A stretch of 39,124 nucleotides of DNA from Atractiella rhizophila (Eukaryota), in contig MU271222.1 of the NCBI GenBank assembly GCA_021432655.1, forward strand, positions 1 through 39,124, written 5' to 3'. The position numbers were made by a program, and so were the translations under genes. Shown in pieces: positions 15,302-36,804 of this stretch. Position 1 is the first letter of the stretch, and every line of letters begins with the position of its first letter. The notes beneath the pieces are model-generated. The model saw nothing but the letters and a program-made list of their open reading frames with translations. It ran no database searches and had not been told where the DNA came from.

Positions 15302-15940
15302 TGTAATCTAAGCTTTTGCCTTGCCTGGCTAGTGAAATGAGGGCACTAGTCCCCTCACAAGTTCTTTCCAAGTTCACAGCCACCCTCCATTAATCATGAG
15401 ATACTGAGAGTGACATGAGACCCCGTTATAACGCGACTACAAGGAGTTGGCAAGGCTCCAGATAGTGGTGGGGGTTCGAAATATGATAGTCTAAAACATG
15501 AGTTTCATAGTATAAGAACAAGAGCATGAGGATATAAGCATAAGTGAGACAAGCATACCAAAAACACTCGAAGAGTCTACGGAGCTGGGGACAGTGGAGA
15601 AGGCTTTGGCAAAGCCCTAAAATACCACGGACTAACTAAGTGGAGAAAGAGGGTCAAAAGAAGAGTACAGACCCTCTTTGAGTGTTTTAGAAACGAGGGG
15701 TACATCAAACTTACAGAGAAGAGAAAGGAGACCTTCGAAGTGTACTTGAATGAGCACAGCACAACTACTGAGAGAAGGTACTCATCTCACACACAGCACT
15801 AGTACCTCAGTACAGCCAAGCTCAAGAGATGGTGGTTGTGTGTGAGTGAAAGAAAGGGGTCATGGAAGCAACACTGCGACGAAAGAGAAATGACTCATAA
15901 AGGTAACGAAGAATTGACCATTTATGTTATTTGTATTACA
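15302..15940. mobile_element. Solo LTR, 639 bp
   Basis: Begins TGTAAT and ends ATTACA (6-bp inverted termini). Flanked by CTCGT (15297-15301) and CCCGT (15941-15945), a 4/5-matching 5-bp TSD. Non-coding; the Harbinger homology stops at its edge. Confidence 0.7.
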
Positions 15941-17570
15941 CCCGTAGTCTGATCCCATGTCTCCCAGCACCAATTCTCACCAGACTCCCAGACTCCCAGA
16001 CACCTGACCCCTTGCTAGCTTCTCTATACTCCTTCAGCATACTCCTTGCAATCACGATCTCCACTTCACTCCACTCTCCAAAGAATAACACAACAAAAAG
16101 TTTCATACACTCCTTCTCCATCCGCCTCACCTGCCGATACCCAAAGAACCAGCGGATGAAGTCTGGGAAGTCGAATGAATCCACCACACAGTACCAGAGC
16201 GTCATATAGCGTATCGCCGTTGCATTTGTGAGGGTGCTGAAGAACTGGCGAGAAACGAGTTTTGACGTTTCTTCACCCCCATCGAGGATCAGCTTGGTGA
16301 GGTGTTTGAGGTGCGAAAAGTCGAGCGGAGTGGGTAGGATGGAGGTCTTTCCATTGACAGAGAAGGGAGCAAGCAGGACTCTGAGCTTTTCTAGAAGAGG
16401 CGGCAGAGGGTAGTTGGAGATGGAGGATGGGAGTGGGCACATATGCACGAGTGAGAGGCGCTTGAGTGTGTGTGGGAGGGACAGTGATGCAAGAGGCGGG
16501 TAGCTGTAAAGGTGGAGGTGTTCGAGGCGAGAGGATAAGTGAAGTCCTGTCGAGGCTGAAGCAGGAGAGTCCTCCACGTTGTGAACAGTGAGCCATCTGA
16601 TCCTGTTACCCATCCTCCACATAAAGTCGTCAATTTCCTCGATCCTCCACTTTCTTGAACCACTTCCAAACGTGACATCATCCACCCGTTTCAAGCCTTC
16701 GACTGCATTCAATACAATTTTCGCCTCCTCTTCATTCCAAAATGCACCCATTATCACCATTGTGACACCTGGCGAGCCTACGATGACCTCCTTCGCCATC
16801 CCAACATCTATGCTTTTGTTAATCCTCAGTTCGTTCCACAGTCGTCCGGCACCAGGATAGCGTTTCAACAGCTCGTACTTTTGCACCAAAGAATCAGGTT
16901 CGCCCAAATAAGGAGCTGAAACTTCCCTCCAGACCTTGGATACGTCAGAGATGGTGGAAGCGTCGGCGGAGAAACTGAATATGAGAGAGAGGAGCTCCAC
17001 AGGCAAGCGCGAGATGGAGCAGAGAGTAACATCTGTAAGTGGGACAGAGAGCTGGATGATGCTAGCTGTCCGGAGGGATGGGGGCAATGATGATTCATCC
17101 TCACTGATGAGCAGGAAACGGTCTTCATGTTCGGAGTATGAGGCAATGGGGGCGAATATTGCATTCTCGCAACAGAAAGTAAATGTGCCATATGAGGCAT
17201 TCGAAAGCCACGTGTATCCTTGCCACGTGTCTGCTTCAACTTCCAAACAGGTTATTTTGAATCTCTCGTAGCCGATGGTAATGTAAAGCTTGATTACACC
17301 ATCCTTGTCGACCCCATTCTCGACCGGTTCAAGTGATAAATAAAACAATTTTGACACTATCTTTACAAGGTTCCCCCTGAATATTGAAGGATATACGACA
17401 CACGAAATCCTGACTGTGTGAATTGACGAAGGTAGGCGAGATAGGAAAGAGGGAAGAATGGAGAGGTGAATTGAATTGGTCTCATCGCTTGGGGTCATGA
17501 GGTGGACAAGTGCCTTCGAGTTTGGTTCCTGAGAGGCATGGCAAAGCCCAGCCGTTTGCTCCTCCGTCAT
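15936..17570 (-). CDS. F-box-like + LRR-like protein, copy 1 (544 aa)
   Basis: Open ORF with an F-box-like motif (ISRLPVELLSLIFSF..ISDVSKVWREVS) followed by LxxLxL repeats; paralogous to copies 2 and 3. A possible upstream exon at ~17923-17678 would splice in frame. Confidence 0.8.
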   Translation of the reverse strand: MTEEQTAGLCHASQEPNSKALVHLMTPSDETNSIHLSILPSFLSRLPSSIHTVRISCVVYPSIFRGNLVKIVSKLFYLSLEPVENGVDKDGVIKLYITIGYERFKITCLEVEADTWQGYTWLSNASYGTFTFCCENAIFAPIASYSEHEDRFLLISEDESSLPPSLRTASIIQLSVPLTDVTLCSISRLPVELLSLIFSFSADASTISDVSKVWREVSAPYLGEPDSLVQKYELLKRYPGAGRLWNELRINKSIDVGMAKEVIVGSPGVTMVIMGAFWNEEEAKIVLNAVEGLKRVDDVTFGSGSRKWRIEEIDDFMWRMGNRIRWLTVHNVEDSPASASTGLHLSSRLEHLHLYSYPPLASLSLPHTLKRLSLVHMCPLPSSISNYPLPPLLEKLRVLLAPFSVNGKTSILPTPLDFSHLKHLTKLILDGGEETSKLVSRQFFSTLTNATAIRYMTLWYCVVDSFDFPDFIRWFFGYRQVRRMEKECMKLFVVLFFGEWSEVEIVIARSMLKEYREASKGSGVWESGSLVRIGAGRHGIRLRV

Positions 17571-19500
17571 TTTTTGAGAAGAGGCAGCAAACTAGAACCC
17601 ATAACCCATGTTAGATGAGGAGAAGAAGGTGGAAGTTGGAGACGAAATCATGCCTGGGTGGTGTCATCAGCAGGGTTTACCCTCCTCCTTACACTCCTCG
17701 TCTTGATGGGATCGAAACTGTGACGAAGCTTGATGAGAAGGAGCCAAGGTCCCAACTGTGAGCTGTGAGACTGCCTTGACAAATAGTTTGTGGGAGAATC
17801 AAGGTGAAAGGCAAGATCGATGTCTCGTTTTGTAGTTGGGGGATTGAAGGACGTTGCCTGCTTTGTAGGTGATGTGGAGAACTCGGACTTCAGCAGGACG
17901 ACCGTCTGGTTCGTGTTGGGCATAGAGAAACGACCTTCTTTGATTAATGAACAAAGCGATTCAAACAGAGCGAGCGGACTGACCTAGATTGGTCAAGCTG
18001 TTTAGTGGGTGGATGGACAGGTCCGTACCGAGATGCCGTGGTTCAATTCTCCTGGCTTCCCACACGGGACCATAGCAAGTCGAGCTACTTCATAACTTGT
18101 TCTGAGGAGGAAGAGAAGTACTGATCGAAGCCGCTTTCGTTGAGAGTAGGTACTGTAGGCAAGTGGGCTGGCGGAGGACAAAGGAAGGTAGAGGGAGTTG
18201 ATCCATCGATGTACGAGTGTTCGGAAGAATGTTCAAATGAAATGGTCGCCCTGATCAGGCTTGAATGGAGGGAGCTCCAAGAGCTACGTCACAGGTAAAT
18301 TGCTTGTTGATATGATGATGTCGCCGCCAAAGAGCCAACAAAACAAACAAAACACATCGTAGCATCCGCAATTCCGTCCACAAACGACAAAACAAAGTGT
18401 TTCAACCGGCGTGAAATGGGAAGAGATCCTAGTCCCGGGACATCTTACCATGTCAGGGACAGGGACAGAGATTGGGGAGAGCGGAAAAACGATGACCGTG
18501 ACCGTGAGGGCAGTGATAGGAGGAGGAGGAGGCGTAGTGTAGAGCATGAGCGTGAGAGGGACAGAGAGAGCAAAGTGGAGCGTACGTCATTCCATACTGG
18601 TTGAGAACGGTGGTTCATGCGTATTAGGGTCGCGTGAACGTCACAGCCACGGGGAGCGAGATGGAAGGAGACGCTCTCGTTCTATTTCCAGAGAGGGGCA
18701 GAGGCGGAGGAGGGAGATGTCCCGCTCCCGCTCGAGGGACAGAGATAGGAAGGGGAAACGCTCCCGATCTCCAGGTTTGTCTTTCCTCACTTTTCTGTTC
18801 AATGTATCCTCGTATTGAACCAAACGTGAATGGGCAGAAACGCGCTCGCGCTCTTCCACCTCATATCGTTGACTAAAGAAAAAGAAGAAGGAAAAACGAC
18901 AGGACGAGACACTGCTGAGCGTGCGGCGAGGAAGGAGAGGGAGAGGGAGAAGAAAGCGATGAAGGAAGAGAAGAGGAAGAAGGAGGAGGGTGGGGGTGGG
19001 GGAGTGGAGTGGGGAAAGTATGGCGTTATTTCTGAATCTGGTTCGTCTTCCTCCTTCCTCCCTACGTTCTTTCTGTCTTGTGAATGTTGGGTAGTGAGAA
19101 TTGATGGACGTTACGGGTGGAACAGACATATTCGAGAAGGAAGAAGAATTTAGGCCCTGGTTGGTTGAAGAACGCTTTACTAACCCAGAAACACTTCAAA
19201 TCCACAGAAAAAGAGACCTTCGTCCAAAACTACAACACCGCCACCCTCCAAATATTACTCTCTTGCCTCTCCGCACTCCGAATGGGCGAGTCGCTCGTCT
19301 CCACTCCGAGACCTACGATGCGAGGGCGGATGAGGAGGCGTTGAGGAAGAGTTTTAGGAGAGGAAGGAGGAGGATAGTTTTAGAAGTCGGGAGAAGTTGG
19401 AACAGTTGAGGAGGATCGAGAGGGGAGAAAGCGGAGAGAGGGAAGATGGAAGGGTGGGGGATGAAGGTTAATGCTAACGTGGCAGTGAAATACGACACTG
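15990..19500 (+). repeat. Segmental duplication, paired with ~30770-34400 (F-box gene + intergenic + RS-rich gene)
   Basis: Long collinear similarity that includes non-coding DNA (17570-18300 vs 32424-33150). Confidence 0.9.
18416..19500 (+). pseudogene. Pseudogene copy of the RS-rich gene at 33288-34410
   Basis: Same exon/intron layout (MGRDPSPGTS, VEWGKYGVISES, DIFEKEEEFRPWLVEERF), but deletions and frameshifts disrupt the last exon. Confidence 0.85.
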
Positions 19501-20109
19501 ATGCCATTATTGTCCGTTTCATCCTCTTCCGCTGGCTTAAGGGTTTTCTTCCCGTCTCGGTTCAATTGTCTCCATCCCGTCTAGCGTTCATCTCCTCCTC
19601 CCGAAACAAGCCACTATTCCTCGAGAACATACAGCTTTGAAGGACGGCATAGAAATGACTCAAGGCTCAAGGAGGTGCGTAGTGACGAAGGCGGCGTGAG
19701 AGTTTGGGAGGACATGTGGGAGCAATATGTCTGAGGCTGCTTTGCGCTTCCCAACCAGATGTGGTTGAGTCGACCTCCTGCACAAGGGGGGAAGCCCGGG
19801 TCTTGTCGATAATGAATAGGTGGCTCATTCGGACATTGACCAGAAGGACGAAGAATAACAGGGCCATAGTGGCAAAGTTGGAGTGATTACGACGACTCAC
19901 GGAGGGTTATTAATCCAGGTTTGTCTTCCCTCTCCCGACCACTTTAGCACTTCGGTTTATCCATCTATGCATCCCTTTCTTATTGTTTGCAAGCTTTTCT
20001 GTCATTCCTGCTCTTGTGCCATTCAGATTTTTCATGGCATCTTTGGGAAGTTCAGCAGGCATTAAACAGACGCTACAGCGACCTTGCTCGCAGAATCTTC
20101 GATGTCATG

Positions 20110-20420
20110 ACATGTGTGCTAATGGCTGACATATGGTGCAAGAGACAAATAGGAAGTGAGGTTCAAGAGCATGGATCGAAGGAACGACCAGATTGCGTTC
20201 GTCGAAGTAAGTTGGACAGTAGACGTGAGGCTGCAAGAGGCAGAGAAGACGTTGGTTTCGAAAGGAGGCAACACAACCATGCCGCGAGGGAGTGTAGAGG
20301 TGAGTTTTCATAAGTGCGCACAATCTCACTCTTGACTTTCCATCTGACGCAGCCTTTTCGCAGCCGTGAGCGCAATTTTTGCCCAGAATATGCTCCACAA
20401 CCTGGTCACTCGCAAGCGGC
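20110..20420 (+). pseudogene. Fragment of unidentified family 'X'
   Basis: Aligns with ~23010-23320 (e.g. GGCTGACATAT.GTGCAAGAGAC and GAGGCTGC.AGA). Confidence 0.5.
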
Positions 20421-20529
20421 GTATGTGGGGACTGGGCAATGGATGTTACCGATACGCAAGTTGGAATCAAAGCAATGCTTGTTCTGTTCGAAAGGCAGGC
20501 ATCCATATCCACAGCCATAAATCACGACT

Positions 20530-21930
20530 CGATACTCCATCCTCACAGACCGCCGCTCAATCATTATCACATCACATCACCCTCGCTGGGTACCCTCGTT
20601 CAGCAAGATGCTGCACCGACTGTCTCCCACACTACCTATCTCTCGTCTCCTTCCCTCCTCTAGACCCTTCTTCAATCCTTCCTCATCCTCTCCTCCCCCT
20701 TCCCCAACATCACTTCTCCGTTTCCACGTGTACTCTCCCACATTCCATTCATTCTCCTCCGCCTGGTGCATTCCAGAATCTTGCCAATGACCACCCACTC
20801 CTAAAAACGACATGAGAAAGGGAGGAAGCGTGCCCCTCACCGAATATCCAACGTTGTTCCTGCCGGCAGGAGAGGATAGTCGGTGAGGAGATTGTCGAAG
20901 CGGAAAGATGGACGCTCGACGCATTCCTCGCTACTTTGTCAAAGTAGAAGGGGGAGCTATCAGATAGGAGGGACGGGATTTGAGGCGGACAGGATGCTTG
21001 AGAGGAGGTCATCCATGCGAATGTCCTCCAGAGAACCCCGTTGAACGGTTATGTGATGCCCTCAGGCGAACGAGGAGAGAAACGGTGCGTGGTGGGATGT
21101 TTCCACTCCTCTCCATCACTGCCCTTGCTCCAGTCCTCACCTTCCCCTTCTCAGGATGTGCACATAGCTTGAAACAGATCCTCTACCTGGTGACACGAAC
21201 CCGCTTCGATCAACCCATCTCCCTCCTCGTCGATCCTTATCCTCCCTCTGCGGCATCCTCAAGCTTTCTACGGACTGCTCCAGCCGGTCTATCTAATGAA
21301 TATTGAATAAAGCGAAGGAGGAAGGAGCGGAACGACGGGGAGGATACGGCATTTGCTCTTGTGCGACGCGAGCCGATATTCCAAAGGGGCCTTAAAGGCC
21401 CTTGCGGTATCTCGGTTGGTCTTACGTCAAAGAAAGGGAAAGTGAAGGAGACACGGACGGGGAAGTGACGGAGAGGGTGGATGGGTAGAGATGAAGTTTG
21501 AGTGCAGTATGGAGTTGTGAGGGGGCGAAGGGAATGCCTCGAGGAGAGCAAGTTGCGGTTCGGAGGGTCGACGAAGCGCATTGGGGGGGCGAATGCCTAG
21601 TTGAACAAAGTTGGAACCAAGGAAAGCAGAGGAAGGAATGCCGCTGAAAAGTGCTCACTCAAATTCCACCGTTTGTAAGTTCTCGATCATGGACGGCGAG
21701 TTGAATGACGTAGTTGATCCTCCGCCACGTCCGAGTTAGCTGTCTCCCATCCCGCCTCGCCTCGACCTTCCTCCGGCTTCCATCTTCTCCTTCGGACTCC
21801 TTCGGGTACTCTACTCCTGACTCCAGCGCTGCACACCTCCTGCCGGCTAGAAAGGTTCTTCTGCCGCCATGCTCCTCCGAACTGTCACCTTTCACGCTCA
21901 AGCAAGTGAGCGAGCACACAGCGCACTCCA
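20530..21930 (-). pseudogene. Family 'Y' copy, heavily decayed
   Basis: Homologous to 960-1382, 11726-12620 (inverted) and 28030-29200; multiple stops. Confidence 0.55.
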
Positions 21931-22999
21931 AGATGCCTATCTTGTGGCTACGGCCAAAGGGAGTAAGGAGGCAGTGGAGAAAAGCTCAAATAGGTGGGAG
22001 TGAGGTGGAAAGTAAGCCAACAGAGGACGAGTTCCATTGCTCTCAACAACCACTATGCTCTCGAATTGGCTCGCTTGCGGAGGGAAAGCTATGAGGTCTT
22101 AGAACAGACCGTAAGACTATGAGATTTTGAGTAGGAGGAAGAAGAGTATTACGCTCTCGTGGGATCCTGGAACGGGAAAGAATGCTGTGGTCACAAAGGT
22201 TCATCTATCGAGGTAAGACCTCGTTCCTCCCCTTTCTTTGCGATGGTATTAACGTTCTACTATTCAGATCGTTTGATTGCAGCAACTGCTTACAGATGCA
22301 CGGAGTAGCAACGGCGCACGCGCACTGGACTTACACCGCTCTGTCTCTGATTCTCTCCTTCATCTTCTCCAAAAGAACGTCCAACATCCTCCGCTCTTTC
22401 AGCTCTCCTAGTCCAGCTACCCCTTTACAAAAGAGAATCTGCAATTCTGTCAAAGCACCTCTTCCATCTAAGATAACAGAAGCACATAGGCGAGGCAGAG
22501 CAGTGTATCGTATTATATCCTGCTAGTCTAGCTGCATGGCAGGAGGAGGGAGCAAGGAAGAATGGGGTGGAGGAGGCATTGAATGTGATGAAGTCGTCGA
22601 GGGTTGAGAGGGCGGTCGACGGAGGAGGGTTTGCCTTCGAACTCTGAACAGAATGTGAACGAGTTCTGCGAAGGGGAGGACAGTAGGTCTTCAGAAAGGA
22701 TGACGAGATTAGCGGACTCATTCTATGTTGTGTAGAAACACGCAGAAAAGCTAGTCCAGATTCGTGAAGCTGGAGTAGGCAGAGGGCGGAGCAGAGAGTT
22801 ACTAGTCTAAGTTCGTCCTCCCTCTTCCGCTCCTTGCCGCACTTCCGTTCCTCCACCTTTCTATCCTTTCTATTCTACTTTGCGACTTTGGACCATTCAG
22901 ATTGTTTGTTTCCCACTTGTTTTTCGCCTCCAATTCTGGAAAGTCAAACCTGACCATGGATTGAACAGACTGTTCACAAACCTACCAGCAACATCTGCT

Positions 23000-23960
23000 C
23001 TGTCACCATTGACGTTCTCGTGGCTGACATATCGTGCAAGAGACGATAACAAGAGACAGTCAAGAGTATGCTGCACAGGATAGGAGAGAGTGACCAACAT
23101 TCGGTTTATCGAAGTGAGTTCGCTCGTAGGCGGGAGGCTGCGAGAAGTACAGAGGATGCGGGATTCGAATGATAGGGAGCGACCGTTGCAGCGAATACCA
23201 AGTAGGGTGCACGCTCCAATTCGAGTGCGTCTCCCAGATCATGCTCTTTCATCCAATATCTAACCAAGCTGTTTTACAGCTAGTCCACTCAACTGTTCGA
23301 TCCCAAACGCGCTCCTCAACCCGTTGACTTCAGAGCTCATTTACTGAATATTGTCATTCTATTACTAACACGATGTGGATAAAGATGGAAGCAACAACGT
23401 GGACATTGAAGAAGCAAACGATTGAACGGAAGTCTTGGGGATATCATGGTATGTGAAGGCCGCTTCTCTTCATTGTCGTTTGTAGATCGGTGCTACAGTT
23501 GTCGTCAAATGGACAAAGACATCTGCAGTAGTCGCCCAAGCTGAGCGATGTCTCGTCTTCTGCTATTCACTGTGCAGAGGACTTCAATTACTTTTATCCT
23601 GTACTCATACGCAAAGTCGCAATCGGAGCCCTCGCACTTTATTCTTATTCCTCGCTTCCTGTCGTGTCACCTTCCTGTCTGTCAATTCCAGGACTCGGCT
23701 TCGCAATGAATATGCAGAGTCAAGTTTCATTCACAGTTGCCGAGTTGCTGTCAAAAGGCAGGTTCCTCTATTGTACATTTACTCAACGAATCTACTCTTG
23801 TGTAAACGTCAGAGTAATGCACTTGAAGCCCCAGTACAAGTGGTATTGTCCTAACCCGGAATCTAAGCATTGGACAGGGCTAGCGAAATCAGTCGTGTAG
23901 TCTCCTGTGTGTTCGGAGGCACGTCCTGTAGTCATGGACTGCTGAGAGCGATATGCGTCT
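23000..23960 (+). pseudogene. Family 'X' copy, convergent with F-box copy 2
   Basis: Aligns with 29940-30700. Shared peptides LSIPGLGFAM and KWxCP..SKxWTxLAKxVV; GT..CTAAC..CAG intron remnant; stops present. Confidence 0.55.
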
Positions 23961-24010
23961 GGATCTAGTAGCTCAAGAGGTGGAGCCTGGATCGGACTGT
24001 GCCTTCAACA

Positions 24011-25582
24011 CTATTCGTCCCCTTCCCCTGGCTCCCAAATGCCTGAACTCGGGCTCTTCCTGTACTTTCCCATCACACTCCTCGCAATCGCAATCTCCTC
24101 CGCACTCCACTGTCCAAAGAATAAACGAACCTCAAGATGTTTCCCTATCTTCTCTCCATCCTCCAGATGACCCTTCTCGATCCCCCTCACCCGCCAATCC
24201 CCAAAGAACCAGCGGATGACGTCTGGGGAGTCGAAGGAGTCCACTAAACAGTACCGGAGTGATATCCGCTTTATGCCCGTTGCATTTTTGAGGGTGCCAA
24301 AGAACTCGCGGGAAACGAGGTTTGACGTTTCTTCGCCGCCGTCAAGGAGCAGCTCTGTGAGGCTTGTGAGGTGTGATAAGTCGAGTGGAGTGGGTAGGAT
24401 GGTCCTCTTTCCATTGGCGGAGAAGGGGCCCAGCTCGATCTCGACATGTTCCAGAAGAGGCGGCAGAGGGTAGTCTGAGATGGAGGAAGGGAGTGGACAC
24501 ATATTGCAGACTTCGAGGTGTTTGATGGTGTGTGGGAGGGAGAGCGATGGTTGAGGCGGGTACTTATAGAGGTCTAGGAATTCGAGGCGAGGTAAGCGAA
24601 GACCTGCTGAGGCTGAAGCCGGAGAGTCTTCCACATCCCAAGCTTTGAGCTGTCTGATCCTGTCACCCATCCTCCACACAAAGTTTTCGATCTCCTCCTT
24701 CCTCCACTTTCTCGAACCGCTTTCAAACATGACAGCATCCACCCGATTCAAGCCTTCGATTGCATTCAACACAATCTTCGCCTCCTCTTCATTCCAGAAT
24801 GCACGCATCCGCACCAATTTGACAGCCGGCGAGCCCATGATGACCTCTTCCGCCATCCGAGCGTCCATACTTTCGTAAAAATCCAGCTCTTCCCACAAAC
24901 GTCCTATACCGGGATATTGTTTCAACCACTCATACTTTGTTGTCACAGAACCAGGTTCCTCCCAATAAGGAATCGCAATATCGCTCCAGAGCTTGCACAC
25001 GTTGGAGAGGATATGAGCGTTGTTGCAGAAACTAAATATGAGACAGAGGAGCTCCACAGGCAAGTGAGAGATTGAGCGGGGAGTAACATCTGGAGTTGGG
25101 ATGGAGAGTTGGATGATGTTAGCTGTGTGGAGGGATGGGAGGGATGACGATTCGTCGTTACTGATGGGGAAAAAGCCTTGTTCGGAGTATAAGGCCATGG
25201 GGGCGAATATGGCATTCTCTCGAGGGAGAGGAAACCTGCGAGTGTGTGGCTTATAAGACCTATCTCTTTTGAGAGCTGACAGATGCCCTTCGAACTCCAA
25301 AAGGGTTACTGTGACATTTTCACGGTTGATGAAAATGCAAAGGTTGATTACACCATCCTCGTCGACCCCATTTTTGACCCGTTCAAGTGATAAATGAGAT
25401 AATTTTGAGATAGGCACCCACCTCCCGTCCAATGAATGAGATAAGATCAACGAAATCTCGAGTGTGTGCACTGACGAAGGCAGGCGAGATAGGAAAGACG
25501 GGAGAATAGAGAGGTCGATCCTGTTGCCGCTGTTTACTGGGGTGATGAAATGGACCAGTGCCTTCATCTTTTGAGAAGACAC
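24011..25582 (-). CDS. F-box-like + LRR-like protein, copy 2 (~520 aa; first ATG at 25567)
   Basis: Open ORF with ISHLPVELLCLIFSF..LSNVCKLWSDIA, LxxLxL repeats and the conserved LDGGEETSNLVS and LFFGQWS motifs. Confidence 0.8.
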   Translation of the reverse strand: MSSQKMKALVHFITPVNSGNRIDLSILPSFLSRLPSSVHTLEISLILSHSLDGRWVPISKLSHLSLERVKNGVDEDGVINLCIFINRENVTVTLLEFEGHLSALKRDRSYKPHTRRFPLPRENAIFAPMALYSEQGFFPISNDESSSLPSLHTANIIQLSIPTPDVTPRSISHLPVELLCLIFSFCNNAHILSNVCKLWSDIAIPYWEEPGSVTTKYEWLKQYPGIGRLWEELDFYESMDARMAEEVIMGSPAVKLVRMRAFWNEEEAKIVLNAIEGLNRVDAVMFESGSRKWRKEEIENFVWRMGDRIRQLKAWDVEDSPASASAGLRLPRLEFLDLYKYPPQPSLSLPHTIKHLEVCNMCPLPSSISDYPLPPLLEHVEIELGPFSANGKRTILPTPLDLSHLTSLTELLLDGGEETSNLVSREFFGTLKNATGIKRISLRYCLVDSFDSPDVIRWFFGDWRVRGIEKGHLEDGEKIGKHLEVRLFFGQWSAEEIAIARSVMGKYRKSPSSGIWEPGEGDE

Positions 25583-26425
25583 GGCAGACTACTCCCCATA
25601 ACCCACGCACGTCAGAAGAGAAGAAAGCTGAAGGTGGAGAATAAACTGTGCCTTAATCGCATCATAAGCCCTTGGCATCCTCATCGTCAGCCTTGTCACC
25701 CAAATCACTCTTCTCATCTTCCTTCTCATCTTCCTTCCCATCCTGACAATTGAGACCATGATTTGACGACAAAGATCTGTGCGACTACCTAGATGAACAG
25801 GTTGATGGGAAATGAAGGAGAATGGGGAGATAGATGGATTGTTTGTTCTTGGCAATAGAAGGACGTGGTTATATGAGGCGGAAAACTTGGATTTCGGGAG
25901 GCTTTCACGATATTACGACCAGAGGGGTGACTCTAAGAATGAAAGAAGTGATTCAAGCGGTGGATGTGGGGAACGGACGTTGGACCCAGCCAGCTCCAAA
26001 GATTCCGTAGCTCCAGTCATGAACAGCTTGGTTTGATACTCCTCCCTCGCCTGCAATGACCACTTGACTTAGTTCACAAATTGCTAGCGGAGGAAGGGAA
26101 CATGATGGTGAATGTTGCGGTGATTCCCGAGTGGATACAAGGCCAAGCAGAGGACAAGAGGAGAGATGGTAGAGTTGAGAGGTTCGCGCCATTTGGCAGA
26201 GTCGAAGAAGGCCTTGAAGAGGAAATATCAGTCCCAGTTTGGGTTCGAGAGAAGTGTGTTTGCAAGATATTGTAGTTTGAATTACTCACGAATGACATCC
26301 AGCAAATTGCTCCCTCTTCACTCTTCCATTTCTCTTTCTTCCCCTTCGTCTTCAGCAATATATCGCTAACTGCTCCATATCCTTCATACTTCGGTTATCC
26401 TCCGCTCCATCCCTCATCATCCTCC

Positions 26426-27110
26426 ATTCACCTTCAAACTACATTGCCTTACATGACCAGGCGTGGCTTCTCAGTCATCTTTCTGCGTCCAGCAATTCTT
26501 TCTGTCGATTCCTGTGAAGGACGAAAGAGAACGAACTCTTTGAGCCTGTTAGCAAACGGGGTGAGGTCATCAACGATGTCTTCTTTGGTAGACAATGAGC
26601 AGTACGGTGATAACGAGGGAGGCGATGGCGATGATCTATTCATTCACCTTCGAACTACACTGCCTTACATGACCAGGCGTGGATTCTCAGTCATCGTTCT
26701 GCATCCCGCACTTCCCTCTTTTCTGTCCTAAGCAAGTGAACTGGAAGACGCTGCGGGATTCTGACGTATTCCGGTTGCTGCTGAAGGCGGTCGTTCGTCG
26801 AAGGAGAGGAGGAAGAGCGTCGCTCGATCGAGATGGAATTCAAACTTATCTTCTTCCTCGCGTCAAGTCAGGAAGCGATGCCCAGCGATGCCGCTATTCG
26901 AAGGGAAATAAGCATATGTTTATGCCTCAAGACTGAGAGTCGTGGGCAATCAGTTAATAACAGAGGTTCGTGTGAAGGATGAAGAATGAACTTTTTGAGC
27001 TTGTTTGCAAACGGCGTGAGGATCATGTCTTGGTAGATGATGAGCAACATGTCTTGGTAGATGATGAGCAGTCCAATGGGGACACGGAAGACGATGGCAA
27101 TGATCCGATG
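26426..27110. repeat. Cluster of local direct repeats in decayed sequence
   Basis: 26426-26498 ~ 26641-26715; 26514-26635 ~ 26971-27105; near-perfect 24-bp tandem CATGTCTTGGTAGATGATGAGCA at ~27024-27071. Confidence 0.75.
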
Positions 27111-28029
27111 TGACAACATGCAACGCGTCGGTTTCCGCTGCCTTTTAGTAGGACGTAGGATGGAAGCTAAGGCTGAGGTTGACATACTGAGGTTTTCTAA
27201 GCGATAAGGCATCTTCGAAGCGTCCTTCCAAGTCCTTTCACGCAATCCTCTTCCATCTACCTCTGCAAAAAAGAAGTCTCCAAGGGCCGTCCACCCATTT
27301 TTCGTCTTCCTCTTATCGACATCCTTGGTTCAAAATCCATTATAGACCTCGAGCTGCTTCTTCACTATGTCACTGGGATAAAGCTGGTTTGTGACTCCGT
27401 GGAGGGACGAGGAGTAATGTTCCCAGCAGAATCGAGGATGGTCTCCCTTCGACTGGTCATTGAATCCTCTAGTGAGTTCAGAGCCATGAATCCTGTTCCC
27501 TCGTCAACGAGGTGGTTCGACCCACTCTCCGTCCCTCCACGCGAGCTACTGGGCCGGCCTTTCCACACTCATTCAACTCTGCTCTAGCACTCCCTCTCCA
27601 GACGGTCCGGAAGGAAGGATACACAGGTGCGAGAATATCGGTCAGGCTGGGTGGTGATACGCTACCCAAATCTGATCTACTGGCAAGCGGAAGGGATTCA
27701 GTTGAACAGAAGCAGTTCGAATCGCCTTCGGATGGTCAGCTCGTCGAGCGTATGAGTACAGCTGCCGTCGTCAGCCTCCACCTATCGTATGAAAGGATGG
27801 CATACAAGCCACGGTGTCGCCTTTTGATGCTATCACGGTACAACAGATGTGAAATTTCTAGGGGCAGCCAGCACTGCTGACATGAAAGTGGGAGTAGTCT
27901 CCATTTGGATATGGCAGCAGAGTGTCAACAATGCCACACATCCTGCTTCATCGTATCGTGTGAAATCGGCACTGTAGACGGGAAAGAGTTGAAAGTAAAG
28001 AGGACACACAACACAGTCGATTCGCGTGA

Positions 28030-29200
28030 CCTTTCCGCTTCCATCTCCACATCCTTACTCTGCAACCAGAGGCTCACGCAATCCTTGTCTCATCTCATCA
28101 CCTTCCCTAAGTAGTCCTCGTTCCGATAGAAGCAGCACTGGCTCTCTCCCATGCCACCTCTCATCTCGAAACCCTTTGTCCCTCCAGGCCCTTCTTCTAT
28201 CATCATCCTCATCCTCTCATCCTCCATATCCTCGACATCAGCTCTCCATGTCCCCGTCTACGCCCGATTCCTCCTTCTCCTCCGTTCCGAAATCTTGCGC
28301 GTCACCGCTCCTTACCGGGACATTAGAGAATGAGGAGGCATCCAATTTGCTGAATATCCCCACATTGTTCCAGCTAGCTGGCTAAGGAAGTTGGAGGTGA
28401 ACAGCGAAGGCGACTGATGGACGCTCGACGTGTTCCTGCCAAAGTGTAAAAGCGGAAGGAGGGAGCAGGGGAGCGGAGGAAGGTCGTTCGTGCCAATCCA
28501 ACTGAGAACCTGTTGAGTGGTTATGTGATGGCGCGCTGACCGAAGAGCAGAGAGGTGGCAGTGGTGAATGTGTTTTCGACCTCTCCACCGCCGCACCCCC
28601 TACGGTCCTCACCCTCCTCCTCTTCAGGATATGCGTCCTGCTTGAAACAAACCATCCCCCTCCGTCTCCACCATGAACCGACCTAGCCGAACCCCCTTCG
28701 ATCAGCCCATCTCCCTCCCTGTCTTCACTCTGCCGCATGCTCCAACCAACCTGTCTCTGGGACTGCTCCTGCCGCTCTACTGGATAAGAGGAAGGAGGAA
28801 GGAGACGGAAGACGGGGAGCGAGACGTGGTATTTACTCTTGCGCTACGGGAGTAGATCCACTACGAATGCGCGTTGAGAGTCTGTGATGTGTCGGGTAGT
28901 GGTACTTCAGGGTTAGTGAAGGCAACAGCGGAGGGAGTGGCGGAGATGGAATGCAAGGCGGAGAGGTGGATTGATGGCTTGGTGAGCGAAGAGTGGTTCG
29001 TGCTTGTGCGGGGGAGAGTTTTGAGATCGGGAGGTGTGAGGGATGAAGAGGAGGCTCCGTTGTGGGAAAGGATGGTGGACCTAGCTGGACAAAATTGGAA
29101 TGAAGGGAAGAGCTGAGCATTACAACACATTGCCGACTCCCACTCCAAGTTGAATGATGTCATTCAATCCCGGCCGCAAAGTTAGCCGCTGCATTCCTCC
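28030..29200 (-). pseudogene. Family 'Y' copy, decayed
   Basis: Homologous to the other three Y copies; stops and frameshifts. Confidence 0.55.
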
Positions 29201-29319
29201 TCCACGGATCATCGACTTCTGGACATCATGTGGCTGACAAGCTGTTTAATGCAGGAGAAGTAATCAGGAGTAGACAAGTATGGCTACCCTCTGAAGATTG
29301 TGCGCGTGCTGCTCCAAGT

Positions 29320-29817
29320 TACCCTGTAAGTCTTCTGCTCTCTTATCGGTTTGACAGCAGATTGGTGATGAAGGTGAATTAAAGACCTCAAGCAGCTCGT
29401 GTTTGACATTTTATAGGTACGGGAATCCGAGTACACGCTCCTATTGCCGACGAAAGGATGCCAAAGGTCACCTTCCTTTCCTCCCCCACTTTACTCCCAC
29501 AAGGGCTAACACCACAATGCAGCCGCTCGGATAAAGCGTACACATCCCGACACAAACGCAACAGCCCTCAGTTGCTTCTCCCACCAAGAAATCCAAAGCA
29601 GTCAATTCCGCACAACCCGGCACGGCACCAAGGTCAAGATCCGAAGCTGAATACCTTTACTCTCTCCCTGCTTGCTGATGCCGAGAAGGTAGAGAAGCTC
29701 AAGCAGAGTCTCGCTCTTAGTACGTCGTCTCTTCGAGTTTATGGTGCTGGTATGAGTGCTATTGGCCAAGATCTGATGGTGGAGGTTATTGATGAGACCA
29801 CCAAGAAGGAGAAGTGA
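29320..29817 (+). pseudogene. RPL38: 60S ribosomal protein L38 (eL38) pseudogene with retained introns
   Basis: IA-RKDAK [intron 29467-29522] AARIKRT ... TKVKIRS* YLYSL .. DAEKVEKLKQSL [intron 29720-29770] .LMVEVIDETTKKEK*. This matches the eL38 pattern IARRKDA..ARIK..TKFKVRCSRYLYTL..DAEKAEKLKQSLPP, with frameshifts and a stop. Confidence 0.85.
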
Positions 29818-29939
29818 GTGAGGCTCGTTAGACGGGATTTCGTCTGTGTGCAACTATGTACATCGACTCTATATAAAAACTGACGATCATTGAACCGACT
29901 TACAGAGGAGGGACCTGACCATCGCAGTGATGTTGATTT

Positions 29940-30700
29940 ACATGGTTCAAACAGGTGCATCTTCAAGATCATGCCTTTTCATTCAGCATCTAACTAGACT
30001 GCTTTACAGCCAGTCCACGTCATTGTTCGATTCAAACGAGCTCCTTAATCTGCTCCATTCGTTATTGACGAGCCACTCCTGGATGGTGCAACAGCAATAA
30101 TGCCATGCGACTCCAGAGCACATCGAGTCGAGGTCCTCATTCTCCTTCAGACATAGATGTGGATGAAGATAGAGGCTGTGGAATTGACATTGAAAAAGCG
30201 AACGATCGAAGGGGAGCTTTGTGGATTGTATGTGAAACCCCTGTTGTTCTCATTTTCGTCTGTAGATTGGTCCAACAGTTGTCTCAACTGCACGAAGGTG
30301 CTTGCAACTTGTATTCTGCTATTCACAGTGCAGAGGACTTCATTCGCATTATAGCATGCGCAAACATATATGAACTTTCGCACTTTGTTCCTCGCCTCCT
30401 ATCTTGCCACCTTCCCGTCTGTCAATTCCGGGACTCGGCTTCGCAATGATCATACAAATTCATTTTTATTCACGGTTGCTGTCAAAAGAACATTTACTCA
30501 ACAAATCTAATCTTTGTTTGAACATGAGAGTAACGGACTTGATGTCTCAGCGCAAGTGGCATTGTCCTACCTCTCAATCTAAGCGTTGGACCTGGCTAGC
30601 AAAACAAGTGGTTGAGTCCCCCTGGCAAATTCTGTGCGTTCGCAGGTATGTCCTGCCGCCGTGGGGTGATGAGAGCGATGCGAGAGTCGGGAGTCTGATG
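29940..30700 (+). pseudogene. Family 'X' copy, convergent with F-box copy 3
   Basis: Aligns with 23225-23960; fragmented ORFs. Confidence 0.55.
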
Positions 30701-30708
30701 CAGTAGTT

Positions 30709-32424
30709 TCAGAGGTGTAGCCTGGGTCGGATTGTGCCTTCTACACTACTCCTTGCCCTCCCCTCCCCAGGCTCCCAAATACCTGACGTCATGCCCCAAA
30801 TATTTGACCGCTTGCTCCTTGGATACTTTCCCATCGTACTCCTCGCAATCACAATCTCCACCTCGCTCCACTCTCCAAAGAATAAACGAACCTCAAGATG
30901 TTTCCCTATCTCCGCTCCATCAACTCGATCCCCCTTTTCAATCCCCCTTACCTGCCAATCCCCAAAGAACCAGTGGATGAAGTCTGGGCAGTCGGACGAG
31001 TCCACCACACAGTACTTGACTCTTATCTCCTCGACCGCCTTTGCATTTTTGAGGGTGCTGAAGAACTCGTGGGAAACGAGGTTTGACGTTTCTTCGCCCC
31101 CGTCGAGGACCAGCTTGCTGAGGTGTGTGAGGTGTGAGAAGTCGAGCGGAGTGGATAGGATAGAGGTCTTTCCATCGGCGGAGAAGGGGGCCAGCTTGAT
31201 CCAGAGAATATTCAGAAGAGGCGGCAGAGGATAGTCTGAGATGGAGCAGGGGAGTGGACACATATTGGAGAGTCCGAGGCGCTTGAGGGTGCGTGGGAGG
31301 GAGAGCGATGACAGAGGCGGGTACTTGACAAGCTCTAGCCATTCGAGGCGAGAAGATAAGTGAAGGCCTTCTGAGGCTGAAGCGGGAGAGTCCTCCACAT
31401 CGTGAACGCTGAACCATCTGATCTTGTCACCCGTCCTCCGCACAAAGTTCTCGATCTCCTCCTTCCTCCACTTTCCCGAACCCCCATCTCCAAACATGAC
31501 GTCATCCACCCGTTTCAAGCCTTCGATTGCATTCAACACAATCTTCGCCTCCTCTTCGCTCCAACATGCATACATCACCACTTCCGTGACATTCGGCGAG
31601 CCCGCGATGATCTCCTCCGCCATCCCAAGATCCATACTTTCGTCAAACCACAGTCTGTTCCACAGTCGTCCAGCACCAGGATAGTGTTTCAATCGCTCAT
31701 ACTTTTCCACCACAGAATCAGGTTCACCCCAATAAGGAGCTGAAACGGTTCTCCAGAGCTGGCACACTTTAGAGAGGATGGAAGCGTCGCCGTGGTAGAA
31801 ACTGAATGTGAGAGAGAGGAGCTCGATCGGTAAGCGCGAGATGGTGCACGGAATAACATCTGGAGGTGGGACAGAGAGTTGGATGATGCTAGCTCTCCGG
31901 AGGGATTGGAGGGTTGGCGATTCGTCGTCACTGATGGGGGTGAAGCCTTCTGGTACGGAGTATGAGGCAATGGGGGCGAATATGGCATTCTTGCGAAAGA
32001 AAGGAAATGTGCGGGTATATGAATCACCATATGAAGCAAGTGGGTTGACCGCTGATTTGACATCTCTTTTGACAGTCAACGTATGCCCTTCAACATCCAA
32101 AAATGTTACTGACCCACTTTCGCTGTTGATGATAATGTGAAGATTAATTGCACCATCCTTGTTGACCGCATTCTCTACCCGTTCAAGTGATAAATGAGAC
32201 AATTTTGATGACATCTCTTCAAAGTCCCACCTGCTCAATGTTCGGGATAAGGCAAACGAAATCTGGAGCATGTGAATTGATGGAGGTAGGCGAGATAGGA
32301 AAGAGGGGAGAATGGAGAGGTGAATCGAGTCGGTCTCATTACTAGGGGTGATGACATGGACAAGTGCCCTCGAGTTTGGTTCTTGAGAGCCATGGCAAAG
32401 GCCAACCATTTGCTCCTCCGTCAT
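30709..32424 (-). CDS. F-box-like + LRR-like protein, copy 3 (571 aa)
   Basis: Open ORF with ISRLPIELLSLTFSF..LSKVCQLWRTVS and LxxLxL repeats; paralog of copies 1 and 2. Confidence 0.8.
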   Translation of the reverse strand: MTEEQMVGLCHGSQEPNSRALVHVITPSNETDSIHLSILPSFLSRLPPSIHMLQISFALSRTLSRWDFEEMSSKLSHLSLERVENAVNKDGAINLHIIINSESGSVTFLDVEGHTLTVKRDVKSAVNPLASYGDSYTRTFPFFRKNAIFAPIASYSVPEGFTPISDDESPTLQSLRRASIIQLSVPPPDVIPCTISRLPIELLSLTFSFYHGDASILSKVCQLWRTVSAPYWGEPDSVVEKYERLKHYPGAGRLWNRLWFDESMDLGMAEEIIAGSPNVTEVVMYACWSEEEAKIVLNAIEGLKRVDDVMFGDGGSGKWRKEEIENFVRRTGDKIRWFSVHDVEDSPASASEGLHLSSRLEWLELVKYPPLSSLSLPRTLKRLGLSNMCPLPCSISDYPLPPLLNILWIKLAPFSADGKTSILSTPLDFSHLTHLSKLVLDGGEETSNLVSHEFFSTLKNAKAVEEIRVKYCVVDSSDCPDFIHWFFGDWQVRGIEKGDRVDGAEIGKHLEVRLFFGEWSEVEIVIARSTMGKYPRSKRSNIWGMTSGIWEPGEGRARSSVEGTIRPRLHL

Positions 32425-33287
32425 TCTTTGAGAAGAGGCAGCAAACTAGAAGTCATAACCCATCTTAGATGAGAAGAAAGCCGAAGTTGGAGATGAAATC
32501 ATGCCTGGATGGTGTCATCAGCAGGGGTTAACCTCCTCCTTACACTCCTCATCTTGACGGGATCGAAACTGTGACGAAGCCTGATGAGAATGAGCCGAGG
32601 TCCAAACTGTGAGCTGTGAGACAGCCTTGACGAATAGTTTGTGGGAGAATCAAGGTGAAGGGCAAGATCGATGTATCGTTTTGGAGTTAGGGGATTGAAG
32701 GACTTTGCCTGCTGTATACATGATGTGGAGAACTCGGACTTACTTCAGCAGGACGACCGTCTGGTTCGTGTTGGGCAATGGAGAAACGACCTTCTTTGAT
32801 TAATGAACAAATCGATTCAAACAGAGCAAGGGGACTGACCTAGATTGGTCAAGTTGGTTTGTTGGCACGTCCGTACCTAGATCCCGTGGTCAATACACCT
32901 GGCTTCCCACACACAACCATAGCAAGTCGAGCTACTTCACAACTTGTTCTGAGGAGGAAGAGAAGTACTGATTGAAGCCGCTTTCGTTGAGAGTAGGTAC
33001 TGTAGGCAAGTGGGCTGGCGGAGGACAAAGGACGGTAGAGGGAGTTGATCCATCGATGTACGAGTGTTCGGAAGAATGTTGAAATGAAATGTTCGCCCTG
33101 ATCAGGCTTGAATGGAGGGAGCTCCAGGAGCTACGACGCAGGTAAATTGCCTCTTGATTCGTGTTGATTGATGATTGATCTGTTGGTGTCAGTGCCAACA
33201 AAGCAAACAAAACACATCACGCATCACATCGTAATAGCGTCCGCAACTCTGTCCACAAACAACTTGGCTAGTTTTGACCTGACCGAA

Positions 33288-34410
33288 ATGGGAATAGATC
33301 CCAGTCCCGGGACGTCTTATCGTGGCAAAGACAGAGATAGAGACTGGGGAGAACGAAAAAAGGATCACCGTGGTCGTGAAGGCAGAGATAGGAGCAGGAG
33401 CAGGAGCTTAGAGCGTGAGATGGACAGAGAGCGTACGTTATTCCATACAGATTGAGAACGGTGGTTCATGCGTATTAGGGTCGCGTGAACGTCACAGCCA
33501 CCGGGAGCGAGAGGGAAGAAGACGCTCTCGTTCTCGTTCCAGGGAGAGGCGGACAGAGAGGAGGGAGCGTTCCCGCTCCCGCTCGAGGGACAGAGATAGG
33601 AAGAGGAAACGCTCCCGATCTCCAGGTCTGTCCTTCCTTACCTCTGTTTAATGTATCCTCGTATTGAAAAAAAGTGAACGGCAGAAAGGCGCTCACGCTC
33701 TTCATCCCTCTCTTCCACCTCACATCGTCGACTAAAGAAAGAGAAGAAGGGAAAGCGGCGGGATGAAACTTCTGCGGAGCGTGCGGCGAGGAAGGAAAGG
33801 AAGAGGGAGAAGAAGGCTCGGAAGGAGGAGAAGCGGAAGAAGAAGGAAGGAGGGGGTGGCGGAGTGGAGTGGGGAAAGTATGGGGTTATTTCTGAATCTG
33901 GTTCGTCTGCCTCCTTCCTTTCTAGCCTCTTTCTGTTCAGTAATATGTTGGCCGTGAGAATTGACTAAACGATACGGTGGAACAGACATATTCGAGAAGG
34001 AAGCGGAATTCAGGCTCTGGTTGGTCGAGGAACGCTTCATCAACCCCGAAACACTCCCAAAATCCAAAGAAAAAGAGCTCTTCCGCACCTTCGTCGAAGA
34101 CTACAACACCGCCACCCTCCCACACTCCAAATACTACTCTCTGGCCTCTCACTCTGCCCAACTCTCCGCGCTCCGAATGGGGGAGTCGCTCGTCTCTACG
34201 TCGGAGACGTACGACGCGAGGGCGGACGAGGAGGCGTTGAGGAAGAGTTTTAGGAGGGAGAGGAAGGAGGAGGATAGTTTTAGGAGTCGGGAGGAGTTGG
34301 AACAGTTGAGGAGGATCGAGAGGGAGAGGGTGGAGAGAGCGAAGATGGAGAGGTTGGGGATGGAGGTTAAGGCTAGTATGGGGGTGAGATATGATACCGA
34401 ATATGAGTGA
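33288..34410 (+). CDS. Conserved uncharacterised RS/K-rich, probably nuclear, protein (4 exons)
   Basis: Introns 33433-33478, 33626-33684 and 33901-33985 splice in frame. RS dipeptides precede a WGKYGVISESD..EFRLWLVEER..FVEDYNTATLPHSKYY domain. Confidence 0.85.
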
Positions 34411-34729
34411 TCACTTTCTTATTTCTATTCTTTTTTTTCTTGCTTGGTTGTTGGGAGCGAAAAAGATATGTATATCACCATAAATACCTATGAACATTCG
34501 TACCACATACTTCAACCACTCAATCTGAAGATGCTCGGAGCTAAGAAAAAGGAATGTTGAGAGGTACAATGGTGCAGATGAATGCGATAAGAAGAGGCTG
34601 CCAGATCCGTGAAAGAGTCCGTTCAAACCAACCGAAGCGAAAGCATCTGGTCCAAGAAGTCATCGACATCCATTCCGATAGAACCAAAACCTGAAGGAGA
34701 GATGTACTGGTCGTGAAAGATCCGGGAGA

Positions 34730-36052
34730 TCATTTCTTATTATTCTGCAGCAGATAAACCTGTCACGCAAGAAAGTAAGAAGAGAAGAAAGAACTCACAC
34801 TAACGATTTTGATAGCGACGACGACCCCGACGATGATGAGGATGATCAAAAAGATGACAAAACACCAAATCCTCTTCTTCCTCGCCCCCCTCGCGCTCTT
34901 GACCGCCTTCTCCATCTCCCCCACACCCTGCTGCATATCCACCGCCGCCGTCTCCGTCTGCTTCTCGATCGCAATGATCACTTCGTCTTGCTGCTCCACC
35001 CTGATACTCAGATCATTGAAGAGCTCGGCGAGCTCGACGAGCGTCCGTTCGATCTGCAGGATCTCTTCTTGTCGCCGCTTGACTTCGTCCAACGCACCGC
35101 GAGCCGCGTTCTGACGACTCGAGAGCGCCTGCGCGAACACACCGTCATTCCCTGTCCTGAGCGCCTCTTCCACGCGCTGTTTGACGGCGTAATCGTCGAG
35201 GGAAGGATCGACGATCTTGATCTGTCTCTCCAGCTTCCTCTTCTCGCCCTCCCTGCCCGTCCTCTCGATCGTCCCGAACTCTTCGACCAACGAGAGCAGG
35301 CGGGATTGTTGGGCTTTGAGCTGGGAGAGACGGAGGTCGACGTCGGATTGGGTTATGGAGCCGGGGATGCGGGCGAGGGATTTGGTTTCGGAGGTGAGGG
35401 AGGTCAGGGCGGATTTGACGCGTTGGATGGAGGTGCGGATGGTGGAGGTGAGAGTGGTTTGTTGGGTTTGGACTTGGGGGTAGTCGGGAGAGGTGGAGGG
35501 GAGGGTGGAGAGCTCTTGTTGGATGGAGGAGAGGGTGCGGAGGGAGGAAGAGAGGTCTTTGAGCGTGGATTGGATGTCGCTTATCTGTCACCATCCCGTC
35601 CATCATCTTACTCCTTAATATAATTTGATGAAAGAAGGACGCACGGAACGAAAGAAACCCTCCATGTCGTTCCTCACTTCCCCCCTCTCATCGAGCGAAT
35701 ACCCACTCCCCCGCTTCGCCTTCCTCCCACCCGCCTGGTTCCCTCTCCCACCACCAGCACCACCTCCTCCTCCCCTCTCCTCCATCTGATACCCCCCTCC
35801 CCCTCCTCCACCATAACTATCCTGTCTCCTCGCCCCCCCTCCTCTCGGCCCACTAGGCAACCCCCCTCCGCCAGCACGCGGCCCAGAAGGAAGACCAGCA
35901 GGCTGCGCCTGCCTCATTGGCGGATACGATGGCTCGTTATCATTCCCGTATCCATTGTTGCTATTGCTGAACGTGTTATTATTATTGTAGGCGTTGGAGG
36001 GCGGTTGCCCCTGGTTCCCGGCGCGCATGGCGGCGAGACGGTCGCGCGACAT
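34730..36052 (-). CDS. Plasma-membrane syntaxin (Sso1/Sso2-like Qa-SNARE), 3 exons
   Basis: MSRDRLAAMRA start; introns 35644-35585 and 34798-34745; helical Habc-like region; SNARE motif (EVKRRQEEILQIERTLVELAELFNDL..VEQQDE); basic ARKKR; C-terminal transmembrane helix. Confidence 0.93.
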
Positions 36053-36804
36053 GGTGATGGTGAGGGTTGGTTGGTTTGATGGTGCTGGTTGGCTGTTGGG
36101 TGTGTTGCTTGTGTGTAAAGAGGGTGGAGGTGCCTGCACCGATTGCTGAGCTCTGCGTTGAGGAAGGACCGTCGTTGTTTGTTCTGGTTGCTTGTTGGAT
36201 AGTGTGAATGGATAGTGTGTTGTAGTGTGGATCTTTCACAGATGTGGCACCAATACCACACACAGGTTATACCGACAACACTCGGCCCGACATCAAACCC
36301 GACCTTGCACGAATATTTTTCCTCCCCGCTATTCCGGTCTCCCTCTGTGGCTCCTCCTCCAGCGCCGTCAACACCTTTTCTATTTCGATCTCAGGACAGC
36401 AGATATTCCAGGCTGCGTTACGCAAACACACGACAAGACTCGAGTCCACGGTCTCTGTCCCCCATCCCGACTCCGTGGCTTGCTGACTACTCGACGCGCG
36501 AATCGTCTTGTCACGTCTTGTCGCCAGCTGCCGATCGTGCCGGCATGGCATCTTTCCAGACTCTTATAACCTACCATCTCAACGCAATGTGCCTCCACTT
36601 CTCTTCCCTGTCAAAAACTTATTTAACTCTTCCCCTCCTTTTCTCCTTCTCAACTCACCGATCCCACTCGCATCGTTCTCCGTCGAAAATCAGCTACGAA
36701 TTCCTGCATACTTTACTGTACTGTTACACACCCTCGCTTGCTTGTTTGCTCTGCGAGAAGACATTGTGTATTGACCATCGAAGTATCGACGGTTTCTTTG
36801 AAGG

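Follow-up and report, generated by a model that had tools for sequence, protein, structure and literature searches.

F-box proteins of the FBXL type, in which an F-box is followed by a solenoid of leucine-rich repeats (LRR), are single-copy conserved regulators, among them FBXL17, FBXL2, Skp2 and yeast Dia2 as well as the plant TIR1, COI1 and D3/MAX2. The three genes described here share this order of domains and have their top fold matches among these receptors. They lie in 39,124 nucleotides of Atractiella rhizophila contig MU271222.1 (assembly GCA_021432655.1; hereafter the window), for which an initial annotation, made from the sequence alone, had proposed a diversifying F-box family, receptor-like or antidote-like. 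In contrast to FBXL-type receptors, the Atractiella family has dozens of copies, an extra N-terminal domain of ~177 amino acids and a hypervariable concave face. It is a real, expressed and positively selected F-box/LRR repertoire that seems to show the pattern of an immune-like recognition repertoire. With moderate confidence, we read the three genes as part of a tandemly arranged set of intracellular substrate receptors of the SCF (Skp1-cullin-F-box) type that is under arms-race selection against changing foreign proteins.

Tandem birth-and-death is also described for the Caenorhabditis FBXA/FBXB families, Cni-neib-1 and plant families, in which the F-box is under purifying and the substrate-binding part under positive selection (PMC8120010, which cites Thomas 2006 for stronger selection in substrate-binding than in F-box domains of C. 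elegans). Those families carry FTH or FBA binding domains instead of LRR, belong to animal or plant hosts, and have a demonstrated function only in some cases; a newborn F-box gene copy can destroy the protein of a foreign allele, and a newborn F-box gene kills hybrids (PMC11573670). The S-locus F-box arrays of S-RNase self-incompatibility (SLF/SFBB) resemble the Atractiella locus in being multi-copy, with transposons, conversion and positive selection, and have divergent haplotypes of different structure (10.1101/2025.10.28.683340), which are probable in Atractiella; but here no linked toxin was found among the window frames searched, LRR replace the FBA domain, many relatives are dispersed and half of the copies are dead. 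The F-box expansions of Agaricomycetes are likewise basidiomycete, recently tandem-duplicated and high in copy number, yet belong to another subphylum and showed no sequence relationship outside the F-box; they are argued to be developmental, and the available text reports neither site-level selection nor haplotype divergence (10.1101/349894). Plant NLR clusters and the VLRs of lampreys and hagfish offer an analogy only, as the present proteins have no NB-ARC/NACHT domain and no membrane anchor, and their output is probably degradation rather than signalling. Judged by titles and the beginnings of abstracts, with subscription journals thinly covered, the literature held nothing on the A. rhizophila F-box family or its N-terminal domain; judged in the same way, it held nothing on site-level selection in a fungal F-box/LRR family.

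Positive selection on the LRR surface

The proteins (60 kDa) consist of a beta-rich N-terminal domain, an F-box and a ten-strand LRR solenoid (Table 1), with FBXL17 as the closest solved fold. To analyze selection, 70 loci were reduced to 55 stop-free frames spanning copy 3 positions 21-530, and to 54 after one exact duplicate was dropped; broken copies were thus left out. Site models were our own implementation with naive empirical Bayes. Among 26 close copies (510 codons), the gene-wide ratio of nonsynonymous to synonymous rates (omega, dN/dS) was 0.76, and model M2a was preferred over M1a with a likelihood-ratio test statistic (LRT) of 622, placing 12% of sites at omega 3.6; M8 was preferred over M8a with an LRT of 486 (442 gap-free codons, with a copy 1 frameshift masked). 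Sites selected under M8 comprised 18 of the 30 exposed LRR strand positions, defined as the alternating residues of the model's ten strands, vs. 5 of 217 other LRR positions. The same surface was selected in an independent clade B, whose 17 dispersed copies sit on unrelated contigs (19/30 exposed vs. 1/232 other), and a third group of 10 copies gave 4/30 vs. 3/232.

Since the copies recombine, trees were refitted in five windows, all of which supported selection (LRT 63-172). A tree-free test on 15 disjoint pairs, using local divergence, returned omega 3.6 on exposed positions and 0.49 elsewhere (LRT 221), while the range was 0.83-1.15 in six simulations of a null in which divergence was mosaic and exposed sites were neutral. 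Exposed codons that were unchanged showed ordinary silent differences (0.104 vs. 0.116-0.123). Purifying selection was found on the F-box (omega 0.39-0.69, estimates including 0.57 on the tree and 0.39 in clade B) and on buried strand residues (0.19-0.49). Copies 1, 2 and 3 themselves differ pairwise at 23, 27 and 25 of the 30 exposed positions, vs. about 56 of 230 other LRR positions. Positive selection on the predicted LRR binding surface is therefore strong, and this surface evolves faster than neutral DNA. As site models, the independent clade, the pair test and null simulation agree, the receptor-like, diversifying character given to the family by the initial annotation is well supported, with omega above 1 on a defined surface and both F-box and LRR core under purifying selection. 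Structure prediction, which that annotation had named as a check, places the most variable residues on the alternating exposed strand positions of the LRR.

These values bear directly on the idea that the family regulates proteins of the fungus itself in development or metabolism and is tandem-expanded and largely drifting, which we consider improbable. Fungi that form mushrooms carry 67-1,199 F-box genes, mostly recent tandem duplicates with developmental expression (10.1101/349894) and read as developmental (10.1101/349894, PMC10282164), a drift view exists for plant F-box genes (PMC3030570), and the gene-wide omega of 0.76, the near-neutral N-terminal domain and the 22 broken among 44 long copies would all fit. 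Drift, however, cannot account for independent clades whose alternating strand residues have omega above 3, and conserved own substrates would not drive such turnover; pure drift is unlikely.

The N-terminal domain had been flagged as ~180 amino acids ahead of the F-box and left unlabelled, and indeed neither Pfam nor PDB sequences, PDB folds or BFVD gave a match to it; in the AlphaFold2 model it is a candidate new fold. Its omega (0.69-0.98 overall) is a mixture of regions. The conserved blocks and variable patches first quoted for it are present in copies 1-3, although the patches differ in kind. Elevated dN/dS was borne out for patch 1, with omega 1.63 (p 0.017) and 3.2 in the 15 pairs (LRT 56), falling to a non-significant 1.08 in clade B, but not for patch 2 (1.02, 0.94 and 1.12, none different from 1). 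Nor is patch 2 barely alignable, as had been thought: it aligns across the family, copy 2 carrying an in-frame deletion and copy 1 an out-of-frame stretch between a 2-base insertion and a 17-base deletion, i.e. a compensated frameshift. A short loop at positions 28-33 reached omega 4.4 but was chosen post hoc. Patch 1 was thus rightly picked out as variable, whereas the main signal, on exposed LRR strand residues, had been missed. A wider, very divergent A. rhizophila F-box/LRR set (P0091-P0117) has N-terminal regions of 110-270 amino acids whose final strand, just ahead of the F-box, is similar; their homology to the N-terminal domain is only a possibility.

It is also conceivable, though quite unlikely, that the proteins are LRR sensors working with NLR-like or other signalling proteins, the F-box serving partner turnover or being partly vestigial and the N-terminal domain acting as a signalling or decoy part. 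Paratope-like LRR diversification is typical of receptors, individual F-box scores are weak, and two gene models (P0064 and P0066) join family sequence to TPR repeats. Yet the F-box core is nearly invariant and under purifying selection, and neither NACHT nor NB-ARC had a Pfam match in the three copies or in 40 family members; no NLR gene was seen in the window. The TPR match in P0064 is to Pfam PF13424, that in P0066 was judged by eye, and both models are either real fusions with NLR-like tails or annotation joins.

Expression and mosaic structure of the three copies

Long stop-to-stop frames were found at all three positions for which intact F-box/LRR-like genes had been reported, all on the minus strand, with copies 2 and 3 showing 61% and 64% identity to copy 1; a tblastn search of the window revealed no fourth copy and no remnant beyond these three. 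Upstream of each main exon lies an intron, and also a short Arg-rich first exon where its ATG survives; in copy 1 this ATG is ACG. Contigs of X2, a public sequence run whose kind is not on record, skip the introns of copies 1 and 3, both of which therefore yield spliced transcripts: one contig spans 17442-17811 across the copy 1 intron without mismatch over 308 bases, and others skip the 59 bases between the GC-AG ends of the copy 3 intron. For copy 2, the upstream Arg-rich exon is predicted from alignment, with no splice joint among the joints listed. Lack of transcription, which would have undermined the initial annotation, is hence countered for copies 1 and 3.

A. rhizophila is a root endophyte, which fits root metagenome runs, and two root metatranscriptomes contained family-like contigs, mostly 90-99% alike, which may represent other strains or paralogues. 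Such contigs, and the existence of microbial F-box effectors, speak for effectors that enter the cells of plant roots, take over the SCF of the host and have diversified against host targets. We regard this as very improbable, given that no hydrophobic signal peptide was seen in the N-termini, judged by eye without a predictor, that the first exon is Arg-rich, that the proteins are multidomain and of 60 kDa, and that size and decay are similar to those of defensive families.

Copies 1 and 3 share 3.5 kb of homology, RS-rich gene included. The observation that DNA upstream of them is better conserved than the coding patches was correct, with 7% difference over 668 aligned bases, but its use as a neutral comparison was not: across 175 four-fold silent sites the two coding regions differ by 22%, which is threefold the value for the upstream DNA, so that the latter is no neutral yardstick, and the stretch called non-coding includes the 16-codon first exon and the intron. 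What makes the upstream DNA similar is exchange or constraint rather than a neutral clock. In the coding tree, copy 1 does not group with copy 3, the nearest relative shifts along each gene, and over its last 80 codons copy 3 is 1-3% away from a copy with an overall identity of 71%. The copies are mosaics, with exchange of segments between them.

Array turnover and a probable second haplotype

A protein search of the organism's own genome, collecting the family as the initial annotation had advised, revealed a large tandem family of at least 77 matches, at least 76 of them long, at 50-100% identity; the count is a lower bound, as 76 of 519 first-look candidates were scored. Sixty-three of 64 database homologues are named A. 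rhizophila, and the remaining one is the window's own protein; a profile search returned 105 proteins, of which the ten distant ones looked up were all from the same species and the weakest matched in the F-box only. This species restriction is indistinguishable from restriction to a thinly sampled class, and databases may be short of close relatives. Six array contigs hold 52 family places (22 intact, 22 broken, 8 fragments), in one orientation within each contig, a lineage-specific tandem arrangement that points to birth-and-death by unequal crossing-over. With 22 of the 44 long array copies intact, three intact copies in a row are nothing special. Neighbours are co-duplicated, with DNA matches to the RS-rich gene (16), the RPL38 region (23) and spacer X (46). 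Among 9 long copies of the last RS exon (135 codons) 2 are intact, as against 22 of 44 for the F-box gene (538 codons), and so retention of the F-box frame is not neutral, even though half of the copies die. The genome has three Skp1-like loci (L075-L077, on C110 and C301), two of which lie 11 kb apart on one contig.

The right end of the window is colinear with a second contig, C76 (Table 1). The syntaxin-MFS block occurs exactly twice in the genome, and residue differences between window and C76 amount to 1/261 in the syntaxin, 1/232 in the MFS transporter and 1/135 in the RS gene, vs. 116/550 (79% identity) in F-box copy 3, including 21 of the 30 exposed positions; silent divergence lies at 5-12% in all of these genes. 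On the other side of the RPL38 copy the contents differ, with three family places in the window vs. seven on C76. At the far end of the array, C123 and C92, on which the best RPL38 matches lie, are colinear over ~23 kb with 77-96% identity. Most blocks of the second copies at both array ends are 85-96% identical, while two control stretches (10 kb each) further along the window contig have second copies at 96.6-99.4%. C76 is thus a probable deeply diverged second haplotype, on which the counterpart of copy 3 would be its allele. On the simplest reading, a single locus lies between RPL38 and RS, and a dikaryon or diploid carries it as two old haplotypes; segmental duplication is the alternative explanation of the likeness between C76 and the window. 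Beside the array on C76 lies a multi-copy element (L096:2150-8230) with reverse-transcriptase-like and tyrosine-recombinase-like frames by eye (DIRS-like); over its last 272 bases it matches the beginning of C51 at 99%, and the C76 haplotype may therefore extend into C51.

Divergent array versions raise the question of an S-locus-like or poison-antidote locus, in which every haplotype would encode a toxin or incompatibility factor and use its F-box set to destroy those of other haplotypes, a collaborative form of non-self recognition at mating, at fusion or in spore killing. The architecture recalls apple S-haplotypes (10.1101/2025.10.28.683340): both array ends seem to exist in two deeply diverged versions (C43/C76; C123/C92) whose inner gene content differs, transposons have inserted, and there is tandem duplication along with conversion and positive selection. 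No toxin candidate was found, however: X has no conserved frame, and Pfam revealed no toxin family for 150 of the 192 intergenic frames of the window, the search having covered window frames and the other array contigs being without gene-by-gene annotation. Moreover, dispersed copies, which sit on unrelated contigs, show this selected surface as well, so that it is not bound to one locus. We consider such a locus unlikely, and the antidote-like role suggested in the initial annotation finds no direct support.

As for the neighbours called broken in the initial annotation, this held for the RS copy and the RPL38 copy (the latter not among 14 Pfam matches), but cannot be shown for X, as no reading frame is conserved among its copies. 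A spliced X2 contig at 27586-28474, over X, has two skipped stretches and minus-strand sense, and is possibly a non-coding RNA. A plus-strand transcript with a GT-AG joint at 19915-20067 (runs X2 and X4) is perhaps the gene initially labelled Y. Inside the array lies a CACTA-like element (5462-9825) with a Transposase_21 (Tnp2) frame at 6290-8062 (E 2.7e-17), extra frames at 8600-9825 and a divergent frame at 5462-6451, these without a Pfam match. An N-terminal fragment of the proteasome lid subunit PSMD12/Rpn5 is stranded at 10941-11309 (minus strand, E 7.4e-18). Positions 11719-13218 are 98% identical to C88:72044-73550, including an identical 233-residue frame in X, through either recent exchange, duplication or an allelic patch. 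A short direct repeat of ~85 bases (86% identical) lies between copies 2 and 3 at 26425-26727. The array flank carries a syntaxin/SNARE gene (34763-35587, minus strand) and an MFS transporter (38139-38885, plus strand), with one second copy each on C76.

Table 1. Location and properties of features in the window (pLDDT, predicted local distance difference test; pTM, predicted template modelling score)
Feature	Position	Strand	Properties
Copy 1 main coding exon	15936..17591	-	Met 17570, 544 aa; N-terminal beta domain, F-box, LRR
Copy 1 5' GC-AG intron	17592..17653	-	joint 17591-17654, run X2; 62 bases
Broken co-duplicated RS-rich gene copy	18413..19501	+	stop; 41% identity in last exon
Copy 2 main coding exon	24011..25588	-	Met 25567, 518 aa
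Co-duplicated spacer X	27850..28950	.	other copies 794-1276, 11719-12693, 20558-21372; spliced contigs exist
Decayed co-duplicated RPL38 copy	29150..29900	+	74-75% DNA identity to best RPL38 loci
Block colinear with C76:147-10148	29176..39124	.	89.7% identity; RPL38 copy, copy 3, RS gene, syntaxin, MFS transporter
Copy 3 main coding exon	30709..32445	-	Met 32424, 571 aa (each length from first in-frame Met); last array copy
Copy 3 LRR solenoid, ten strands	30871..31665	-	30 alternating exposed strand positions hypervariable
Copy 3 F-box motif	31729..31842	-	purifying selection
Copy 3 N-terminal beta-rich domain	31843..32373	-	~177 aa; AlphaFold2 pLDDT 77.7, pTM 0.75
Copy 3 patch 2, indel-tolerant, poorly modelled loop	32002..32091	-	neutral-like; pLDDT <50
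Copy 3 patch 1, end of strand 3 and following loop	32209..32256	-	elevated omega
Copy 3 GC-AG intron and 16-codon Arg-rich first exon	32446-32504 and 32505-32552	-	joint 32445-32505, runs X2 and X6
Intact RS-rich gene	33250..34420	+	divergent from copy 3; marks array edge

Proposed mechanism and meaning

If the genes encode SCF substrate receptors under arms-race selection, as we favor, the F-box, whose motif and purifying selection were observed, would dock the protein on Skp1, in keeping with established knowledge of F-boxes. The concave beta face of the LRR, the hypervariable surface observed here, perhaps aided by loops of the N-terminal domain, would bind the target by analogy with FBXL structures. 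The target would then be ubiquitinated and destroyed by the proteasome. From the pattern of selection, likely targets would be fast-changing foreign proteins reaching the cytoplasm, from mycoviruses, transposons, antagonistic microbes or a foreign nucleus. The repertoire appears to be renewed by unequal crossing-over, which drags along neighbours that decay, and by segment exchange, with about half of the copies dying, as observed. Provided that C76 and C92 represent second haplotypes, different array versions have probably been kept for long, two repertoires widening coverage, and balancing selection may act on them.

Several points weigh against this reading. The exposed positions were drawn after the first site-model output, so that the fully clean test is clade B alone; fitting the silent rate on exposed sites alone lowered omega to 1.8 (1.81; p 5.6e-6 and 9e-4), and plain Nei-Gojobori counting gave 1.05, because most changed codons are multi-hit, which inflates pS. 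The F-box holds at the family level, where PF12937 (F-box-like) matched 35 of 40 members at E<=0.1 (best 5.8e-9), F-boxes were the only PDB matches of the family profile and the core residues P, E, L, F, V, C and W are nearly invariant across 54 copies; in the window itself, copies 1 and 2 (E 1.8e-4 and 9.6e-5) fall below the curated cut-off and copy 3 was missed. This leaves the initial call of an F-box upheld for the family and weaker for single copies. Allelism is deduced from the colinearity of unphased contigs, and the background divergence comes from two 10-kb stretches only; the F-box copies of C123 and C92 are 93.5% identical and differ at 1 of the 30 exposed sites. Mushroom-forming fungi commonly have large tandem expansions of F-box genes, which have been linked to development instead (10.1101/349894). 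Finally, targets, phenotype and induction are putative only.

Cumulatively, non-self recognition, as first proposed, is a fair interpretation that is strengthened by the probable second haplotype, though the analysis revealed neither a target nor a toxin or phenotype. For fungi, the main explanation of non-self recognition lies in NLR-like and het genes. Against this background it is possible, if doubtful, that the array is an innate-immune or self/non-self locus of SCF receptors, like the major histocompatibility complex or an S-locus in its anciently diverged haplotypes, in which antibody-like LRR faces and a domain of new fold would recognize foreign or non-self proteins and pass these on to the proteasome; such a locus would parallel fungal NLRs but act by degradation. 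What the window contributes is the array edge, which offers a probable allele pair, a conserved flank that can serve as control and an as yet unplaced N-terminal fold. Given its mapped hypervariable binding face, its spliced transcripts and two probable haplotypes in one genome, the family would make defence by targeted degradation directly testable in A. rhizophila.

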